Source: Fidelibacterota bacterium (GTDB lineage: Bacteria; Fidelibacterota; Marinisomatia; Marinisomatales; UBA2128). From it: DNA of 32,574 bases. Below are positions 3,427 to 15,167 of this stretch, piece by piece. Under the pieces are notes generated by a model. That model did not search any database. It worked only from the letters and a program-made list of their open reading frames with translations, and was not told where the DNA came from. The stretch is from contig JBHHUM010000023.1 in NCBI GenBank assembly GCA_046861645.1, positions 1 through 32,574 on the forward strand, written 5' to 3'. Each line of letters begins with the position of its first letter. Within the stretch, counting starts at the first letter, position 1. Made by a program: the position numbers and the translations under genes.

Positions 3427-4020
3427 TCAGGTAATCTGGCTGTAAATCTCGTCAACCTGTCGAATCAGGTCTTCTTCACTTCTGTTATTGTCTATAATGA
3501 AATCTGCCATCTTTGCCTTTGCTTCTTCAGGCAGTTGAAGATCCATCCGCTTCTGAATCTGATCTCTTGTCAGTTTTCCCCGCTGTAAAGCACGACGCAT
3601 TCTTTGACCGAACTGGGCGGTAACGACGATAACATAATCGAGGTGTTGATCCAGTCCAGATTCGTAGATGAGGGCTGCATCGACTACGAACAGAGTAGCT
3701 TCTCCTTTAACAGAGACTTCCTCGTAACGGTTATCAATGGAATCAAAAACGTGAGGGTGAATAATAGCATTCAGGACAGCCTGATTTTCCTCGTTGGCAA
3801 AAGCCACCCGGGCTAGTTTCTCGGGATTTATTGTTCTATCAGGGCTAAGAATATCAGAACTGAATTCCTCGATAAGATCCTTTTGCACCTGTTCGTTGTT
3901 CCTAAGGATCTCTTTTGCTTCCTTATCGGCGTCGAACCGGTATGCTCCCAATTCCTCCAGGCGAATGCTGGCTACACTTTTGCCGCTGCCGATTCCGCCT
4001 GTGACCCCAACCTTTAACAT
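3427..4020 (-). CDS. coaE: Dephospho-CoA kinase
   Basis: VGVTGGIGSGKS, FDAD, LNAIIHP, ADFIIDN. Confidence 0.96.
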   Translation of the reverse strand: MLKVGVTGGIGSGKSVASIRLEELGAYRFDADKEAKEILRNNEQVQKDLIEEFSSDILSPDRTINPEKLARVAFANEENQAVLNAIIHPHVFDSIDNRYEEVSVKGEATLFVVDAALIYESGLDQHLDYVIVVTAQFGQRMRRALQRGKLTRDQIQKRMDLQLPEEAKAKMADFIIDNNRSEEDLIRQVDEIYSQIT

Positions 4021-4022
4021 GA

Positions 4023-4676
4023 CTATTTTTCTCCGTTTATTAGATTTTTCAAAATACGGGTCGTTACTTTTTTGATAGTACCTTCTCCGTTCACTCTGAT
4101 GAGTTGACTTCTCTTTTCGTAGTAGGAAATAAGTGGTTCTGTTTGTCGCTGGTACACTCGTAACCTTTCACGAATCACATGGGGTTGATCATCATCTCTC
4201 AGAATAAGTTCCCCACCACAATGATCACAAGTGTCCTTCGCCCGAGGAGGGGTAAAAAGGAGGTTCGTGATGGCACCACAGGAGGCGCATGTACGTCGAC
4301 TGGAAAGTCTTTTTATTAGGAGCTCATCACCACCTTCCAGAGCTATTACACTGTCAAGATTCTGTTTGATTCGCTGCAAGAGTTTGTCTAAACCATCAGC
4401 TTGTGGCACTGTCCGTGGGAAACCGTCAAACAGATAACCGGTAAAAGTATCGGGTTGGTGTAAACGGCTCTCCACCATTTTTAGAATGACGTCATCCGGT
4501 ACGAGTCTACCTTGATCCATATAGGTTTGGGCTTCCTTACCCAGCACAGTTTTGGCGGTAATGGCTTCTCTTAGCATGTCGCCGGTGGAAAGATGAGCCA
4601 TGGAGTACCGTTGACAGATTATCTTTGCCTGAGTTCCTTTGCCAATTCCAGGTGGTCCCAAGAAAACCAGTCTCAT
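4023..4676 (-). CDS. adk: Adenylate kinase (long zinc-LID type)
   Basis: GPPGIGKGTQA, HLSTGDMLR, DGFPRT, LID CASC...CDHC, RDDD. Confidence 0.97.
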   Translation of the reverse strand: MRLVFLGPPGIGKGTQAKIICQRYSMAHLSTGDMLREAITAKTVLGKEAQTYMDQGRLVPDDVILKMVESRLHQPDTFTGYLFDGFPRTVPQADGLDKLLQRIKQNLDSVIALEGGDELLIKRLSSRRTCASCGAITNLLFTPPRAKDTCDHCGGELILRDDDQPHVIRERLRVYQRQTEPLISYYEKRSQLIRVNGEGTIKKVTTRILKNLINGEK

Positions 4677-4685
4677 AGTTTATCC

Positions 4686-5903
4686 TTAGAGTAACAAACC
4701 AGCAATAGTAGCGGTCAACCAGGAAGCTAGAGCTCCGCCCGTCATCGCTTTTAAACCTATTTTAGCCAGGTCCTTTCTTCTCTCTGGTGCGATTCCGCCG
4801 ATGCCACCCAATTGAATTCCAATGGAAGCAAAATTAGCAAATCCGCAAAGAGCGTAACTGGCAATGATGGCTGTTCGGTCAGTGATTTCATGCGCCAAAC
4901 GCAAGTCTCTTAAGTCCCCATAGGCGATGAGTTCAGTGAGGACGATTTTCTTACCCATCAATGTACCTAAGGTAGCAGCTTCGTTCCACGGTGCACCCAT
5001 GGTCCACGCCAGGGGACGGAAGATGACTCCAAAAATTTCTTCCAGCGAAGTGTCAAAAATTCCCAAGAAGGCATTTAGCATGGCAACCATAGCCACGAAA
5101 GCGACCAGCATGGCGGCTACATTGGCTGCCAGTTTCATGCCACTGGTGGCGCCCTGTGAGATGGATTCCATTGCGTTGTCAGCAGTTTTTTCAACCTCAA
5201 TCTTAACGCTTCCCGCGGTTACAGGCTGGCCAGTTTCGGGGAAAATTATTTTTGCAATTACCATGGCTGCGGGTGCACTCATGATAGATGCTGCCAAAAG
5301 ATGACCAGCAATACCGGGCACATCGGAGAGCATCTTCACGTAGATCGCCATAACACCACCAGCAACCGTGGCAAACCCTCCCACCATTACGGCCATCAGT
5401 TCTGATTGCGTCATGGTTCCCACAAAAGGACGAATCATCAAAGGTGCCTCTGTTTGCCCCACAAAGATATTAGCTGAGACGGATAAAGTTTCGGCACCAC
5501 TGGTTTTAAGGGTTTTCTGCATGGCCCAGGCTATTCCTCGGACAATGGCCTGCATGATACCAAGGTGGTACAATAAGGCCATAAGCGATGAGAAAAATAT
5601 AATGGTAGGTAATACCCGAAATGCAAAGTTAAGTAAGGGAGCTTCTACATAACCTTCACCAAATGATTTAAAGAGAAAGTCACTACCAGCATCCGAAAAG
5701 CTGAGTAATCTGCGAATGAAACCGTCAACAGTTGAAAAGAACGGTTGACCAATAGGAGTTTTCAAAATGAAGATAGCGAACACGATCTGTAGCCCCAATC
5801 CCCAGAGGATAATTCTATAATCTATCTGTTTACGATTGTTGGAAAGAAACCAGGCAATTCCCAATAGGGCCAAAATACCTAGTATTCCGGTCAGTTGTCC
5901 CAT
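4686..5903 (-). CDS. nupC: Concentrative nucleoside transporter (NupC/CNT family)
   Basis: VLPTIIFFSSL, ANIFVGQTEAPL, GGFATVAGGV, YALCGFANFASIGIQLGG. Confidence 0.95.
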   Translation of the reverse strand: MGQLTGILGILALLGIAWFLSNNRKQIDYRIILWGLGLQIVFAIFILKTPIGQPFFSTVDGFIRRLLSFSDAGSDFLFKSFGEGYVEAPLLNFAFRVLPTIIFFSSLMALLYHLGIMQAIVRGIAWAMQKTLKTSGAETLSVSANIFVGQTEAPLMIRPFVGTMTQSELMAVMVGGFATVAGGVMAIYVKMLSDVPGIAGHLLAASIMSAPAAMVIAKIIFPETGQPVTAGSVKIEVEKTADNAMESISQGATSGMKLAANVAAMLVAFVAMVAMLNAFLGIFDTSLEEIFGVIFRPLAWTMGAPWNEAATLGTLMGKKIVLTELIAYGDLRDLRLAHEITDRTAIIASYALCGFANFASIGIQLGGIGGIAPERRKDLAKIGLKAMTGGALASWLTATIAGLLL

Positions 5904-5915
5904 TATCTGTCCCTG

Positions 5916-6476
5916 TTAATCTGGCTTTTCATAGCAGTTTCTACAGCGTGCTTCGTATAGGTCACTTTCACCTATGATAATCTGGTCTTTGTCCTCAGAT
6001 AACCGTTGTGTATAGTTAGCAGGATTCCCGCAGACAATACATATGGCAAGAGTCTTGGTAATATACTCTGCCTCAGCTAGCAGGGCCGGGATGGGTCCAA
6101 ATGGCTGTCCCAAATAATCTTTATCCAGTCCGGCAACAATAACTCGCTTTTTAAGTTGGGCTAACTCCTTGCAGACATTAACCAACTCGTCATCGAAGAA
6201 TTGAGCTTCATCGATCCCGATGACCTCAGCCTGATCAGATAGTCTTAAAATATCCATAGAGGAATCTATAGTTTGTGATTTCATCATAGATTGGTTATGA
6301 GAAACAATATGGTCTGCATGATATCGGGTGTCGATACGCGGTTTAAAGATTTCCACGGACTGCCGGGCAATTTCAGCCCTTCTCAATCTACGGATCAATT
6401 CTTCCGTCTTGCCGCTGAACATGCTGCCGCAAATAATTTCAATCCATCCTGTCTCGCGTGGGCTGTGAGTGGGCAT
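5916..6476 (-). CDS. tdk: Thymidine kinase
   Basis: [31 protein letters not shown]...YEARCRNC. Confidence 0.97.
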
Positions 6477-6488
6477 AGATTTTAGTTC

Positions 6489-7109
6489 TTAAGTAGTTAG
6501 AAGGAGCTGAATCTTTTCCTGAACAAGATTTATTGCCGCCAGATTGTTCCCTCCCTTGGGGATGATAATATCAGCATAAATTTTGGTTTTTTCCACAAAT
6601 TGCTCATGCATTGGGCGTACGGTTTCCAGATATTGCTGGATAATACTTCTAATATTCCTACCCCGTTCTTCTATATCGCGAGTAAGTCTGCGTATAAAGC
6701 GAATGTCAGCTGGAACATCGATGAAGACTTTAATGTCCATTAAGTGTCGGAGGGACTTCTTACCTAAAACCAAAAGGCCCTCGATAATAATAATCGGGGC
6801 TGAAGGAGTTGTCTCTTTTTCTTGTAAGCGAGTATGGGTTGTGAAGTCATAACGAGGCACTTCCACTTCTCTTCCCGAAAGCAATTCTTTGAGATGCTGT
6901 CTCATCAAATAAAAATCTAAGGCATCCGGATGATCATAGTTCAGTTTAGCTCTCTCTGCTGGAGTCAAGTCTGAGCGATCCTTATAGTAGGAATCCTGGG
7001 AAATAATGGTAGTTTTATGGGCTGGGAAAAGTGAGGCGAGGTGGTAAGAAGCTACAGTTTTTCCTGATCCTGAACCTCCGGCAATTCCAACGAGGACCCT
7101 CTGTTTCAT
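6489..7109 (-). CDS. udk: Uridine kinase
   Basis: GIAGGSGSGKT, QDSYY, NYDHPDA, RDIEERGR, VRPMHEQFVE. Confidence 0.96.
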   Translation of the reverse strand: MKQRVLVGIAGGSGSGKTVASYHLASLFPAHKTTIISQDSYYKDRSDLTPAERAKLNYDHPDALDFYLMRQHLKELLSGREVEVPRYDFTTHTRLQEKETTPSAPIIIIEGLLVLGKKSLRHLMDIKVFIDVPADIRFIRRLTRDIEERGRNIRSIIQQYLETVRPMHEQFVEKTKIYADIIIPKGGNNLAAINLVQEKIQLLLTT

Positions 7110-7489
7110 TTCTTAAGACTGGAATGATCAAATGGTTTCGGCAGTAACGCTGCGGCTGAAGTTTCTGTCTCTTGACCAGCATCATTCACCAGAGTGATGG
7201 GTATATCTCCGCAAAGTTCCCAGATAACTTGGCGACAAGCTCCACAAAGTGAGGCTTTATTTTTGGAAATGACTACCAGCCTCACAAATGAATGAAAACC
7301 TTGGGCAACAGCTGCGGAAACTGCCACACGTTCAGCACAAATGGTAAGCCCATAACTGGCAGATTCTACATTACAGCCCATAATTATGGTGCCATTTTCT
7401 GTCTCAATAGCTGCACCGACCGGGTAGTTTGAAAAAGGGGCGAAAGCTCTGGACTGAGCGGTTTTGGCAGCCTTGATTAATGAATCCAT
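7106..7489 (-). CDS. cdd: Cytidine deaminase (homotetrameric type)
   Basis: APFSNYPVGAA, GCNVE, ICAER, CGACRQ. Confidence 0.95.
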   Translation of the reverse strand: MDSLIKAAKTAQSRAFAPFSNYPVGAAIETENGTIIMGCNVESASYGLTICAERVAVSAAVAQGFHSFVRLVVISKNKASLCGACRQVIWELCGDIPITLVNDAGQETETSAAALLPKPFDHSSLKK

Positions 7490-11606: not shown

Positions 11607-12293
11607 ATGAAAAAGGCACTGTTTTTTGTGATACTAATTTTGGCGTTCACCTTTACGCCTCTGTCAGCAATAGGTGGCTTGGGATTGCAACTGGGTCAAG
11701 GAACATACACGGTGGCGTCTACCACTGATCAAGATCAAAATGGATTAATAACAGTGACGACCGGTGAATTTAATAATCCTTTAAATTTGGGTTTCTACTT
11801 GTATTTGGATATTATTCCGGTTGTTGACTTTGAAGCTGACGTTCAGATAACCGCGAGTGAATATAATTTTGAATTTAATAATGCTCTGGGTACTGCTGGT
11901 CCTTATGATGCCTTTTGGGGTGGAGCTTCAACATATCTTACTTTACGGAAGGAAATTTTCGGCTTAGGAATCCCATTTTTAGGTGGGGGCAGTATTTTTG
12001 CCGGCGGAGGCTATAACATTCATTCTTATGCACCCCTGGCAGATTTATCTCTGGTTGAAAGTTTGATGGGAAATCTAACAGATGAACCGACTTTTTCCGA
12101 GGACGAGCTTATCGATTTTGTGAAAGAAAATAAAATTGATAAGACTGGTTTCCATTTTCAGGCAGGTTTCCAGTTCAAACTGTTGATGATTGATACCTTC
12201 ATTTTCTATCGTCAGACCTTAGGTAAGTTTGATAATATTGTAGGTAATGACTCATTTGGTACATTTAACATCCGGTTTGGTTTAGGAATTTAA
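11607..12293 (+). CDS. Hypothetical outer-membrane beta-barrel protein
   Basis: SD AGGAGG, signal peptide, alternating Gly/aromatic strands, C-terminal FNIRFGLGI. Confidence 0.7.
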   Translation: MKKALFFVILILAFTFTPLSAIGGLGLQLGQGTYTVASTTDQDQNGLITVTTGEFNNPLNLGFYLYLDIIPVVDFEADVQITASEYNFEFNNALGTAGPYDAFWGGASTYLTLRKEIFGLGIPFLGGGSIFAGGGYNIHSYAPLADLSLVESLMGNLTDEPTFSEDELIDFVKENKIDKTGFHFQAGFQFKLLMIDTFIFYRQTLGKFDNIVGNDSFGTFNIRFGLGI

Positions 12294-12322
12294 CTCTCTT
12301 ATCTACAAAACCTAATTTCATG

Positions 12323-12350
12323 GGGGTGGTTTTCCACCCCTCTTTTGTTT
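12323..12350 (+). terminator. Intrinsic terminator between convergent genes
   Basis: GGGGTGG-TTTT-CCACCCC followed by TCTTTTGTTT. Confidence 0.7.
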
Positions 12351-12356
12351 TATGCG

Positions 12357-12953
12357 CTATTCCGTTAAAGGCACTGCAGCCTGATAAATCCAGTTCTTTA
12401 AGTCCTTGGAGTAGTAGTGACGTCCAGAGGCTGTAAAGGCCAGGAAGTGGGGTTTTGAAACTTCTGTTCTGGGTATAATGCTCAGAGAGATAAAATCGTC
12501 ATAAGTATCGATTCGGGTTAAAAATGTGAATTCAGTTCCAACCGTTGTGGGATTCACATTCTTCATGGTAAAGACATTTCCGAGGTTGGTTAAGAGAACA
12601 AATCCTGTCACCGGGGGTGCTGAACCAAAAGTAAAATGAGAAGAAGAGACGATCAATTCCCCTTTCTGAACATGAGTGGAGTCCAACTTTTGAAGAGCGG
12701 TTTCAAGCTCTTGAACAAGTTCTTCAGGAATCGATTTACCTGCAGGTCCTGAGGGTCCTATAGGTCCTGGAGGTCCAGTAGGACCAGGGGGTCCAGCTTT
12801 ACCCGGTGGTCCTGGATCACCGGTGGGGCCCTGAGGTCCCGGAGGACCTGTAGCACTGCAGGCGATAAGGGTCAGTATTAATCCTGCGAGGAAAAGGCTC
12901 CTGATCCTTTTGCCTTTTAGAAGGGGGCGGTATCTGTTGCCTGTTGAAGCCAT
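12357..12953 (-). CDS. Collagen-like lipoprotein
   Basis: Lipobox LIAC, then 13 Gly-X-Y triplets, a short helical neck ([14 protein letters not shown]) and a beta-rich C-terminal domain. Start uncertain (ATG 12953 or 12971); both overlap the upstream gene. Confidence 0.85.
12732..12848 (-). repeat. Collagen triple-helix (Gly-X-Y)13 coding repeat
   Basis: [39 protein letters not shown]. Confidence 0.9.
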
Positions 12954-13471
12954 TTCATTGACGATGTCCATGCCAGGGACATAATGATGATAAGTTCGGA
13001 CATAATCGCTGCCACGAAGAACAGTATGGATCTTTTTAAGGCGACGTTCTTATACAGGTTTATTTTTCCGAGTGAGAAAACTTGAGTGGCAAACATCTCA
13101 TAGACTTTTCCTGGCTCTCCAGATACTTTCTTCAGATGGGCAGCATAACTTTCCGGTGTAGAGAATTTAGCAATTCCAGCGAAAAAGGTGGGGTTATCAG
13201 GTCTTTTTTTAGTGCTTACTTTGTCTTTTCTGATGCGGGGAACGATAACCAGAATCAATTGGATTATAGTCATTAAAGCTGAAACAAAATAGATGATGAC
13301 CATAAAGAAGATAAACCAGTTAATTTCCATTTTGGTAAAGTGTACCATAAAAAAAACCATGAACACTCCCAGGATAGATAACATGGTAAATGCCTTCTGA
13401 TCCGTGCGCTGCAGAATTTGCTGTTCGCTGGACAGAACGTGAAATAGAGCTGTAAAATCTCGGTCAATCAT
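12917..13471 (-). CDS. Pycsar-type transmembrane effector family protein (PycTM/DUF5706-like)
   Basis: RTDQKA (cf. ADxKA), two TM helices ending in [11 protein letters not shown] (cf. LxFFGxIA), [12 protein letters not shown] (cf. QIxxLSxIxxxK), third TM; 184 aa. Confidence 0.8.
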
Positions 13472-13479
13472 GAGCCTGA

Positions 13480-13508
13480 AATATAGGATACGATATTACC
13501 AAATGCAA
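13480..13508 (-). promoter_or_regulatory. Putative sigma70 promoter of the effector gene (leaderless or near-leaderless)
   Basis: Minus strand TTGCAT-17 nt-TATATT, ATG 8 nt later; the promoter plus those 8 nt fill the 37-nt gap. Confidence 0.55.
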
Positions 13509-15167
13509 TTACCTCAGTGTCTCAGCTAAAACTACTGTTTTAATCCACACAACGGTCTGTCCGTTTATCTGGTCGACTGCTTCAACCTTAAGGATATACA
13601 TTCCAATCCGGGCGCGGATGCCACTATCGGTATGGCCATCCCAGATGAGTATCCCTTCTGCTCCAGAGATGAGATTCCTTGCCAAAGTTCGCACTTCACG
13701 GCCTATACTATCGAAAACCAGTATAGTGATGTAAGCCTGAGCGAAAGGTAGACTGTAGGTAATCCTGAGTTCCTCATCAAAGCCATCTCCATCCGGAGAG
13801 AACGGATTAGGATCAAGAAGAATAGTACCCGCTTCTGGCAAATTTTCCACAAGAATGCTGTTGTTCTCACCCGGTGTCATTTTTTCTTCTGCTGTACAGG
13901 TTCCCCAGTTTTCAGCTTTTGGTGAATCCAATTTAGGGTTCAGCTTTTCCAGGGAACGACCATCACCTCCACCCCAGTCATCCGTAAAACTAAGGGAATC
14001 AATTACTGACCGAGTGGGGTCAAAAAGGAAGATATCATCACCACTGTTGTTAAGTGTGGGGAATCCATCCGGTGATACCAACAAAAGTGCCGATAGCGGC
14101 ATGTAGGGGAGCAGTGTGGAGTCGCTGCTCACCACTATAAGGTTACCGGGTGATCCTGTTATTTCGGGAAAAGCTCTTAGATTTGATGTATCGCTGTCAG
14201 AAAAATACCAGCCAGATAGATCCAACTCTCCTTCATCGAGGATAGCCAGTTCAATAAATTCAACCATACCAGCAACTGGGGAATAGTGTATTTCATTGAA
14301 AGTGAGCACTCTTTCGGTAAATCGTACAGCCAGCGAGTAGTCAGCATGGTTATTGGTTGTGTCAGCGTCCTCAGCAACAAATAGGGAAATGTTAAAAAGG
14401 TGTTGACCGGGGCTGAGTGTTCCAAGAGTTGCGTTCACCAGAGCGGAGTCGCCGTCTAGTATATTAGAGAACGTGGTTGAACCCACTATTGAGGATTTTT
14501 CACTCACCATAACTGTTCCCGAAATAGGATTGATACCCTCGTTTCTGACAGAAGCTAAGAGAGTGACTACATCATTCGGTGTAGGTTTATCAGGAGTATG
14601 ACTGAGGGAGGAAGTAATGAGAACGGCCTCTATTAAAGGAGGAGCAACACTGTTAACGAAACCAGGAGTTCCGAGGGAATCAAGACTCGTAGCCCAGTTG
14701 GCAGTAGTGTTGGGTTGGTTGAGCCTTTTTCGTTCATAGGAGAAACCGGATGCAGATATATCAGCCCAACCGACACTATCAGAAGTAGTGCTGGAACTGT
14801 TGGTGAGGAAAAGAGAATCTGCAGAACTCAACCCGTTTCCAATACTATTATCATCAACTCGAACAACAAGAACCGAGTCAGGAATAAGATCCAGATAAAT
14901 GCCAGTTGCCGGGTCGTAATCACCTTCAAAAATCAGAGCGTAGCGCTTGGGAGCGATGGTTGTACCCATACCACCATCTACAAGTTCATCAGTGGAGAAT
15001 TTGTCTCTGATTTTCCAAAGGGAAAGATCAATGGAGTCGGGACTGTCGTTGTAAATTTCCACAAACTCGTTAGGGGAGTCAGACCCCGCTAAATCAAACA
15101 TCACCTCGGAAAATATCAGTTGAGCAGATAATGGTAGGGTGGTCAGTAATATGAGAAATAAGATCAA
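13509..15167 (-). CDS. Secreted lamin-tail-domain protein (LTD - CARDB-like Ig - LTD - FlgD-Ig-like C-terminal domain)
   Basis: IFSEVMFD...EFVEIYN...IDLSLW; FNEIHY...EFIEL; GTPGFVNS/MTPGENNS; NPFSPDGDG...IWDG...IGMYI; TTG start 6 nt after the arsC stop. Confidence 0.85.
   Translation of the reverse strand: MILFLILLTTLPLSAQLIFSEVMFDLAGSDSPNEFVEIYNDSPDSIDLSLWKIRDKFSTDELVDGGMGTTIAPKRYALIFEGDYDPATGIYLDLIPDSVLVVRVDDNSIGNGLSSADSLFLTNSSSTTSDSVGWADISASGFSYERKRLNQPNTTANWATSLDSLGTPGFVNSVAPPLIEAVLITSSLSHTPDKPTPNDVVTLLASVRNEGINPISGTVMVSEKSSIVGSTTFSNILDGDSALVNATLGTLSPGQHLFNISLFVAEDADTTNNHADYSLAVRFTERVLTFNEIHYSPVAGMVEFIELAILDEGELDLSGWYFSDSDTSNLRAFPEITGSPGNLIVVSSDSTLLPYMPLSALLLVSPDGFPTLNNSGDDIFLFDPTRSVIDSLSFTDDWGGGDGRSLEKLNPKLDSPKAENWGTCTAEEKMTPGENNSILVENLPEAGTILLDPNPFSPDGDGFDEELRITYSLPFAQAYITILVFDSIGREVRTLARNLISGAEGILIWDGHTDSGIRARIGMYILKVEAVDQINGQTVVWIKTVVLAETLR

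Follow-up and report, generated by a model that had tools for sequence, protein, structure and literature searches.

Gene pair and its products

The stretch of DNA analysed here (the window) is positions 1-32,574 of contig JBHHUM010000023.1 of a Fidelibacterota bacterium (assembly GCA_046861645.1), and the subject is a pair of overlapping genes on its minus strand, in the region 12357-13508. The first gene of the pair (12917..13471) encodes a 184-aa protein of the PycTM family, and the second (12357..12971) encodes a collagen-stalked lipoprotein, called COL below, of 204 aa counted from M1 and with a likely start at M7 (position 12953). M1 and M7 are the only in-frame COL start codons upstream of the lipobox, and both lie within the 3' end of the PycTM gene, giving an overlap of 55 nt from M1 or of 37 nt (12917..12953) from M7, the residue at which the ESM Atlas record of COL begins.

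The product of the first gene is a small inner-membrane protein with three transmembrane (TM) helices that belongs to the PycTM, or pJV1-SpdB3, family. It was matched by Pfam PF18967 (PycTM) with 52.7 bits (cut-off 27.2, E 6.2e-14) over residues 55-155, on profile positions 10-107 of 107, and by three PADLOC PycTM models with E values of 1.7e-15 (PDLC02364), 7.6e-14, and 3.7e-8. Its Atlas feature matches were all PF18967 clusters (0.94), and some NCBI relatives are already titled "Pycsar system effector family protein." Three hydrophobic spans in the hydropathy profile give TM helices at about residues 27-45, 52-77, and 148-168. Together with the basic cytosolic loop between TM2 and TM3 (residues 78-147, 15 K+R), these spans give a predicted topology in which the N-terminus and the long loop are cytoplasmic and the final 16 residues (169-184) are periplasmic. 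The AlphaFold 2 (AF2) model is all-helical (3-45, 52-76, 106-117, and 120-181), with a mean predicted local distance difference test (pLDDT) score of 77. The cytosolic N-terminal helix bears the invariant RTDQKAFT, and the family-wide conserved positions D24, K26, P78, FF96-97, L134, G135, and K141 are retained. Among 17 orthologues, 50 columns are invariant, the mean column identity is 61%, and TM1 is nearly invariant, as is W52 at the periplasmic end of TM2; the periplasmic C-tail of the clade paired with COL has the consensus W-x-RALP(F/Y)LFP. An earlier reading of this DNA, made from its letters alone (the sequence-only reading), had described a 184-aa 3-TM protein with PycTM/DUF5706 motifs and had named a profile search as the check; the profile match was found above the curated cut-off, and the motifs fall on conserved positions. 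A profile search of the PDB returned no solved PycTM relative at E up to 1, and Foldseek with the PycTM model returned unrelated helical proteins at a best E of 1.2; the EcPucTM structure entry named in the accessible part of a preprint (bioRxiv 10.64898/2026.08.12.744502) was absent among the PDB matches.

The second gene is translationally coupled to the first, and in the lipoprotein that it encodes a collagen-like stalk leads through a helical neck to a head of two beta-propeller blades. The signal peptide region (12858..12953) carries a lipobox, L-I-A-C, read from the sequence, in which Cys38 is the lipidated first mature residue. In most of 79 orthologues the lipobox Cys follows a signal peptide of 13-17 residues under a heuristic choice of start. 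The stalk (12732..12848, residues 42-80) has 13 uninterrupted Gly-X-Y triplets and was matched by Pfam Collagen PF01391 with 29.5 bits (cut-off 27.2); Gly-X-Y repeats are retained in 17/17 aligned orthologues, with uninterrupted runs of 5-14 triplets. The neck (12672..12731, residues ~81-100) has the conserved motif (V/I)P(P/E)EL..LE, including L85 and L89. The AF2 model has a helix at residues 83-98 and, in the head (12360..12671, residues ~101-204), eight strands between 107 and 199 in two groups of four, the second blade carrying an Asp-box-like S-x-D-L-K-x-W. Block pLDDT over the head was ~83-96, and the monomer model had no secondary structure over the collagen segment. The lipobox, the 13 triplets, and the modelled helix and strands confirm the overlapping lipoprotein with (GXY)13, a helical neck, and a globular head that had been read from the sequence.

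The best PDB match of the head in Foldseek was 7p2j_A (E 6.8e-4), one of a set of engineered fusions of RSL, the lectin of Ralstonia solanacearum, with a trimeric coiled coil, followed by blades of DDB1. VIA-align gave Z scores of 9-10 against adjacent blade pairs of many WD40-type propellers, 9.1 against the RSL fusion 7p2j_B (83 residues aligned), 9.1 against BambL, the lectin of Burkholderia ambifaria (3zw0_A, root mean square deviation 2.5, 81/87 residues aligned), and 8.9 against a Kordia fucose lectin. Identity between the head and RSL or BambL in these structural alignments was 10-13%, and no Pfam lectin family matched the COL head. Because the RSL-like Z of ~9 ties with many ordinary propeller blade pairs, the structural matches of the modelled head show its predicted fold, two propeller blades, and not its function.

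A search of 1.84 billion representative proteins with a neck+head profile found 95 at E <=1e-3 and 27 at E <=1e-10, and the full-length profile matches were all short proteins of the COL family. Three weak matches in multiple stretches that were scanned (P0168, P0171, and P0174; FG-GAP, DUF6242/HVO_0234-like propeller, and PSII_BNR) align around the S-x-D-L-K-x-W segment and are all propeller-repeat proteins. A word-indexed search with the head returned 18 proteins, close relatives only, and the Atlas structure neighbours of COL were Fidelibacterota proteins and then WD40 propellers. Collagen segments are obligate trimerisers with a rise of ~0.29 nm per residue, and RSL and BambL are trimeric fucose lectins in which two-blade subunits form a six-bladed propeller, in agreement with the PDB titles. 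Because collagen trimerises and the two-blade fold resembles that of RSL and BambL, COL would by analogy be a trimer with a six-bladed head on a stalk of ~11 nm and a coiled-coil neck. No paper describing this architecture of anchor, collagen, neck, and two blades was found in the literature searched. In one genome (G002, loci L008 and L029) the COL open reading frame (ORF) extends to 330 aa in antisense overlap with the convergent outer-membrane protein (OMP)-like gene, which may reflect a lost stop codon or an assembly error.

Linkage, inheritance, and setting

The same-order sample comprised 61 genomes from 16 families, with a strong PycTM match defined as E <=1e-30. The GTDB species collection has 150 stretches that code for a PycTM relative, and the best 80 of these 150 loci were analysed; the 80 loci partly overlap the 61 genomes and are mutually related, so the counts are not independent. 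A strong PycTM match was found in 31/61 same-order genomes, and in 29 of these 31 COL lies directly downstream on the same strand. The exceptions are G038, a short stretch with only a partial PycTM, and G046, whose intact PycTM gene has a SUI1-like gene, and not COL, next to it downstream. At the species level the COL head is encoded directly downstream on the same strand in 79 of the best 80 loci. Co-occurrence of the pair in other genomes, which the sequence-only reading had named as a check, was therefore found in both collections. COL without PycTM was seen among the 61 genomes only in G020, where it stands at a contig end; G041 has a collagen-only match in a 374-aa frame. Measured with a start-codon heuristic, the COL start lies at -4 nt from the PycTM stop in 36 and at -1 nt in 28 of the 79 loci, at 0 to +8 nt in 10, and at -25 to -73 nt in 5; this junction range (-73 to +8 nt, 79/79 loci) is typical of translational coupling.

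Named relatives are titled Marinimicrobia, Neomarinimicrobiota, Fidelibacterota, or FCB group. In a phylum sample, strong matches (E 3e-72 or better) occurred in 19/151 genomes, all of this order, and the 11 weaker matches were either fragments or distant relatives within PF18967. When viral contigs were scanned with patterns of PycTM and of the COL neck+head, no relative was found, and tblastn of the window PycTM against plasmids gave no match. The gene order lamin-tail domain (LTD) gene, PycTM, COL, and OMP-like gene is found in families f1, f3, f4, and f8, and the order LTD gene, PycTM, and COL in f5. In other families the flanks change and the pair remains together, so the pair is retained while its surroundings are exchanged.

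A maximum-likelihood tree was built from 23 PycTM proteins, and six of the seven families with more than one row form single branches on it. One genome, G044, carries two copies of the pair (contigs C29 and C8; loci L018 and L040), the second of which groups with family f9 (98/95 support) and may be either a transfer or a binning artefact. The ratio of nonsynonymous to synonymous substitution rates (dN/dS) was 0.02-0.07 for PycTM and 0.05-0.15 for COL; in unsaturated pairs (f4, dS ~0.27) it was 0.070 and 0.146, respectively. These ratios indicate purifying selection on both genes, and together with the conservation they rule out a gene-calling artefact. Because the families are monophyletic, the order is syntenic, the neighbours are housekeeping genes, and neither viral contigs nor plasmids yielded a relative, the pattern is that of an ordinary, vertically inherited gene pair and not of a mobile defence system.

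Where COL is missing, PycTM has changed. In the lineage without COL (G046, which is L023, and L091), the PycTM end branch is 0.92 changes per column vs a median of 0.064, and that of the sister genome G009, which has COL, is 0.11. In the same lineage W52 is replaced and the periplasmic tail motif is lost. The tail is seen in the COL-paired clade only; the solitary type-2 PF18967 proteins and two Bacteroidota HD-PycTM fusions end right after TM3, and the COL head profile had no match in the loci of either group. A prediction of the complex between PycTM and the COL neck and head scored 0.00 in two runs with no controls and speaks neither for nor against contact. The type-2 proteins (173-179 aa, 69-86 bits; L058-L062, from G027, G008, G022, G050, and G058) are encoded among housekeeping genes in families f6 and f11, where the collagen-paired type is missing, and neither a cyclase nor a lipoprotein partner was recognised at these loci.

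The LTD gene (13509-15167, minus strand) is separated from the PycTM gene downstream of it by 37 nt, and its 552-aa product has two lamin-tail domains and, at the C-terminus, a weak signal for type IX secretion. Five families show the LTD gene in synteny with the pair, whose transcript it may thus share. The sequence-only reading had given the PycTM gene its own promoter in this gap. A sigma-70 scan, which does not extend to FCB-type promoters, found no site on the minus strand at 13471-13508, and the promoter was not confirmed. The scan gave 9 sites vs 7.0 expected, none suitably placed, and is uninformative for this phylum. Downstream, the convergent gene at 11607-12293 (plus strand), whose 228-aa product carries a signal peptide, belongs to no Pfam family, and may be a small outer-membrane beta-barrel, is syntenic with the pair in families f1, f3, f4, and f8. 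Between the convergent genes a GC-rich hairpin lies at 12322..12341 (8 pairs, 6 GC, -15.6 kcal/mol, z -2.6) with a T-run 3' of it on the plus strand. Because of this T-run, the hairpin is first of all a terminator of the gene at 11607-12293. The hairpin at which the pair had been said to end convergently is thus present, but the minus strand has no U-tract after the stem, and its use by the pair is not borne out.

The other genes in the window include flotillin/NfeD, a nucleoside-salvage cluster, a rhomboid protein, an M23 peptidase, a PDZ protein, Fur, a peroxiredoxin, YbeY, and RecJ. The salvage and kinase cluster (3427-7489, minus strand: cytidine deaminase, uridine kinase, thymidine kinase, Na+/nucleoside transporter, adenylate kinase, and dephospho-CoA kinase) is tightly packed and comes after the rhomboid protease gene. 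No outer-membrane phosphoesterase and no ppk1 were recognised in the window.

Cyclases and the Pycsar question

A Pycsar system, as given in the accessible part of PMC11224242, pairs the cyclase PycC with a receptor, either PycTM or PycTIR, which aborts infection when cCMP or cUMP activates it. The absence of a cyclase, CD-NTase, or other defence gene from these 32 kb, reported by the sequence-only reading, was upheld: neither a PF00211 cyclase nor a CD-NTase nor a defence family was found among the 35 window ORFs scanned. No cyclase is thus encoded beside the PycTM gene, as it would be in a Pycsar locus. The patchy, mobile, defence-island distribution that usually goes with Pycsar, a usual trait and not a formal criterion, was not seen either. 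The accessible part of a preprint on defence in marine single cells does not mention Pycsar in this phylum, and in the literature searched "DUF5706" occurred in no paper and, among the matches listed, the papers on orphan Pycsar held nothing on this gene pair. A holin/spanin remnant, lysis cassette, or prophage was ruled out: nothing in the window was recognised as a phage gene, viral contigs yielded no relative, and PF18967 is not a holin family.

A search of the genome for class III cyclases, also named as a check, found four PF00211 proteins, all encoded on other contigs; two are CHASE2 sensor cyclases, and the other two are minimal cyclases of 172 aa that are paralogues of each other. The genome has a single PF18967 gene and seven ordinary proteins with a domain binding cyclic nucleoside monophosphates (cNMPs). 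The small cyclases, on contigs C44 (L003:1489-2007) and C10 (L004:1489-2007) of genome G000, are 83% identical to each other and matched the PADLOC PycC model PDLC00734 with 55.7 and 50 bits (E 1e-15 and 5.7e-14). The CHASE2 cyclases reached 84.1 and 73 bits on PADLOC PycC, and because these ordinary cyclases score higher than the small ones, the PycC match says only that a protein is a class III cyclase; after this control the matches of the small cyclases were rejected as evidence of a Pycsar cyclase. As partners acting in trans the small cyclases were rejected on their distribution. Strong matches to them occurred in 6/61 genomes (G000, G003, G057, G052, G027, and G020, the last partial), and G052 and G027 have a small cyclase without the pair. 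They are patchy in the order and yet 72-89% identical across families, which suggests mobility; one is preceded by an SNase-like gene, with a match to the PADLOC candidate "SNc+LTD" at E 2.9e-6. Any PF00211 protein was found in 50/61 genomes, 29/31 with the pair and 21/30 without it.

At the related loci, a PF00211 cyclase was absent within 3 kb in 76 of the best 80. Three loci of one genus (L130, L133, and L135) have a 392-aa GAF + PF00211 cyclase gene (160 bits) 18 nt after COL on the same strand, the L133 and L135 cyclases being 97% identical, and a fourth locus, L141, has a cyclase within 3 kb on the opposite strand. In the genus of L130, L133, and L135, PycTM is extended at its C-terminus by a further hydrophobic segment, which may form a fourth TM helix.

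Interpretation and relation to known systems

The chances are about even that the pair is a housekeeping cell-envelope module of one Marinimicrobia/Fidelibacterota order, in which the lipoprotein is the working partner of the PycTM protein, and not a Pycsar phage defence. The sequence-only reading had offered two possibilities. Of these, the one in which a domesticated membrane protein has a trimeric envelope sensor or tether as its partner is favoured, the PF18967 membership being real and COL adjacent in 79/80 loci and 29/31 genomes; neither of the two outcomes named there as refuting the system, no PycTM match or orthologues never beside the collagen gene, was thus observed. The effector activated in trans found little support: the small cyclases do not co-vary with the pair, and the locus is syntenic, vertically inherited, and under purifying selection. 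In the housekeeping module, the 3-TM protein would oligomerise into an inner-membrane channel, by analogy with hexameric PucTM, and the collagen segment would trimerise COL and so close three two-blade heads into a periplasmic six-bladed propeller. The propeller would then engage the periplasmic face of the channel through W52 and the C-tail W-x-RALP(F/Y)LFP, and its part might be that of a gate or sensor, or it might tether the channel to the outer envelope layers. The output may, as a guess, be a flux of ions or small solutes tied to the state of the envelope. Added control by cyclic nucleotides from the ordinary cyclases of the cell would not be required and is possible because one genus has the GAF-cyclase 18 nt downstream.

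Several points weigh against this reading. The genus of the window itself has a non-consensus 16-residue C-tail although COL is present, the tail coding sequence partly overlaps the COL start in some lineages, which may explain its conservation in part, and G046 keeps an intact PycTM without COL, so COL is not strictly required. Little of PycTM is exposed to the periplasm: one loop of ~6 residues and the tail, of 11-16 residues. Because the uninterrupted triplets vary from 5 to 14 among 17 orthologues, the stalk is probably not a fixed ruler, which argues against a device of fixed length. Contact between the two proteins is a proposal, and the dependence of one on the other is read from sequence patterns. 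Channel activity is known for no housekeeping member of the family, and a channel role here would be by analogy.

Signalling by cyclic nucleotides could instead be primary. A housekeeping channel gated by cAMP or cGMP from the cell's own CHASE2- or GAF-linked cyclases, with COL as an accessory periplasmic subunit, overlaps the housekeeping module and differs from it in the primary signal; we regard it as unlikely. The PF18967 members characterised in the accessible parts of PMC11224242 and bioRxiv 10.64898/2026.08.12.744502 are activated by cNMPs, the GAF-cyclase follows COL in 3/80 loci, a PF00211 cyclase is present in 29/31 pair-bearing genomes, and a Bacteroidota HD-PycTM fusion adjoins a cyclase-domain gene. 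However, 76/80 loci have no cyclase within 3 kb and that of L141 is on the opposite strand, cyclases also occur in 21/30 genomes without the pair, which makes the association weak, and two genomes, G001 (90% complete) and G012 (87% complete), have the pair with no cyclase found; the seven ordinary cNMP-binding-domain proteins can serve the cyclases of the genome, and the accessible part of bioRxiv 10.64898/2026.08.12.744502 defines no nucleotide pocket in the TM effectors. A classical Pycsar effector with its PycC acting in trans, for which the two 172-aa cyclases on C44 and C10 are the candidates, is very improbable. Two paralogous minimal class III cyclases are indeed present, both match PDLC00734, and by eye both keep the metal-binding Asp residues and the Asn/Arg motifs, but the CHASE2 cyclases outscore them on the same model, the small cyclase is confined to 6/61 genomes, two of them (G052 and G027) without the pair, 27/31 pair-bearing genomes lack it, and the one PF18967 gene has no adjacent cyclase.

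Defence without a cyclase is a further candidate: a chromosomally fixed abortive-infection module in which COL senses phage attack on the envelope, opens the PycTM pore, and kills the cell. The experimentally studied relatives, in the accessible parts of the sources, are Pycsar/Pucsar suicide pores only, a sensor and an effector in two genes are a layout typical of defence systems, and the second pair copy in G044, grouping with another family (98/95), could be a transfer. Against these stand the vertical inheritance, stable chromosomal position, and housekeeping neighbours of the pair, the high conservation of PycTM (61% mean column identity, 50 invariant columns, dN/dS 0.02-0.07), the absence of recognised defence genes nearby and of a PADLOC match to COL, and the absence of relatives on viral contigs or plasmids, and such a module is rather improbable. 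It is more doubtful still that the two genes share an operon and have unrelated functions, their adjacency being a frozen accident of one lineage. The physical interaction is a proposal, and kin genomes inherit gene order, so that counts are not independent; yet across at least 12 families the two genes have stayed side by side through changes on both flanks, their stop/start overlap of 1 or 4 nt has been kept, no COL gene was found in the absence of PycTM (the exception, G020, being at a contig end), and PycTM is faster and its tail lost where COL is lost.

The housekeeping module can be compared with several described systems. The PF18967 family is called "pJV1-spdB3 family 3TM" in the accessible part of bioRxiv 10.64898/2026.08.12.744502, where EcPucTM is a hexamer whose TM2 helices line a ~15 A channel; the 3-TM layout of the window PycTM matches that description. 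PycTM and PucTM of Pycsar/Pucsar share with it the PF18967 family, the size class, the three TM helices, the helical cytosolic TM2-TM3 region, and the conserved residues. The Marinimicrobia pair is unlike them in having no adjacent cyclase and no defence context, in its vertical inheritance, and in its clade-specific periplasmic C-tail, and Pycsar/Pucsar loci as described in the accessible parts of bioRxiv 10.64898/2026.08.12.744502, PMC11224242, and PMC13069673 have no coupled lipoprotein partner. The namesake of the family, the plasmid spread protein SpdB3 of Streptomyces pJV1 and pSVH1, belongs to a membrane translocation complex and so has a function other than phage defence, according to the accessible part of PMC4447253; SpdB3 proteins are plasmid-borne and actinobacterial and act with a DNA translocase, and they are likened to the window PycTM by family name alone.

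For COL, the head aligns over nearly the whole lectin subunit of RSL and BambL, and the engineered fusions of RSL with a trimeric coiled coil mirror its layout of a trimerising rod followed by two blades; however, the identity is 10-13%, no Pfam family is common to them, and many ordinary pairs of WD40 blades reach equal scores (Z 9-10). Collectins, ficolins, and the C1q family have the same stalk-neck-head design, which by analogy would imply a trimer presenting a recognition surface away from its anchor. They are eukaryotic and secreted, with C-type lectin, fibrinogen, or C1q heads that have no homology to the COL head, whereas COL is a bacterial lipoprotein. In Burkholderia, Bucl8 has a bacterial collagen-like triple helix on an envelope channel system, the trimeric outer-membrane component of an efflux system, as given in the accessible part of PMC7682875; there the collagen is extracellular and fused to the outer-membrane channel, whereas COL is a separate lipoprotein beside an inner-membrane 3-TM protein.

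A PF18967 domain beside a propeller-like lipoprotein and a cyclase gene is also found on plasmid pFA2 of Fulvitalea axinellae (L149, 170417-173107). A 406-aa HD-PycTM fusion (PycTM 107 bits) is followed there by a cyclase-domain gene (PF00211 26.5 bits), and a divergent upstream gene encodes a 302-aa lipoprotein with weak matches to propeller families (NHL 22.1 bits); a type-2 orphan PycTM is 35% identical to the C-terminal half of this fusion. The Marinimicrobia pair differs in having no HD domain and in that, instead of a complete propeller, it has a subunit of two blades on a collagen stalk. Searched with the COL head profile, the Fulvitalea and Chondrinema loci gave no match, and the parallel would be one of design, homology not being indicated by the head profile.

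A bolder version of the housekeeping module, which we consider improbable as a whole, is a gated channel that spans the periplasm. In it a hexameric pore would be capped by the pseudo-six-fold propeller, with one blade per pore subunit, and the lipid anchor of the collagen stalk would sit in the outer membrane, so that a conductance of the inner membrane would be opened or closed by mechanical or chemical change in the outer envelope; the matching of six pore subunits to six blades is speculation. Taken with the HD-PycTM and propeller genes of Bacteroidota, a housekeeping PycTM with a periplasmic propeller would then be the older and broader use from which the Pycsar/Pucsar suicide pores were recruited.

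The gene family itself is known and already annotated; what we could not find in the searchable literature is its housekeeping, vertical form with a coupled collagen-stalked propeller lipoprotein. COL adds to bacteria an architecture of lipid anchor, collagen stalk, coiled-coil neck, and two-blade propeller head. PF18967 proteins are now annotated as Pycsar effectors, and genome surveys count such genes as defence; a slowly evolving, inherited PycTM in a globally distributed marine lineage warns against calling solitary PycTM genes immune. The pair is a tractable two-protein system for the roles of the non-immune members of this family and for the gating of an immune pore family.

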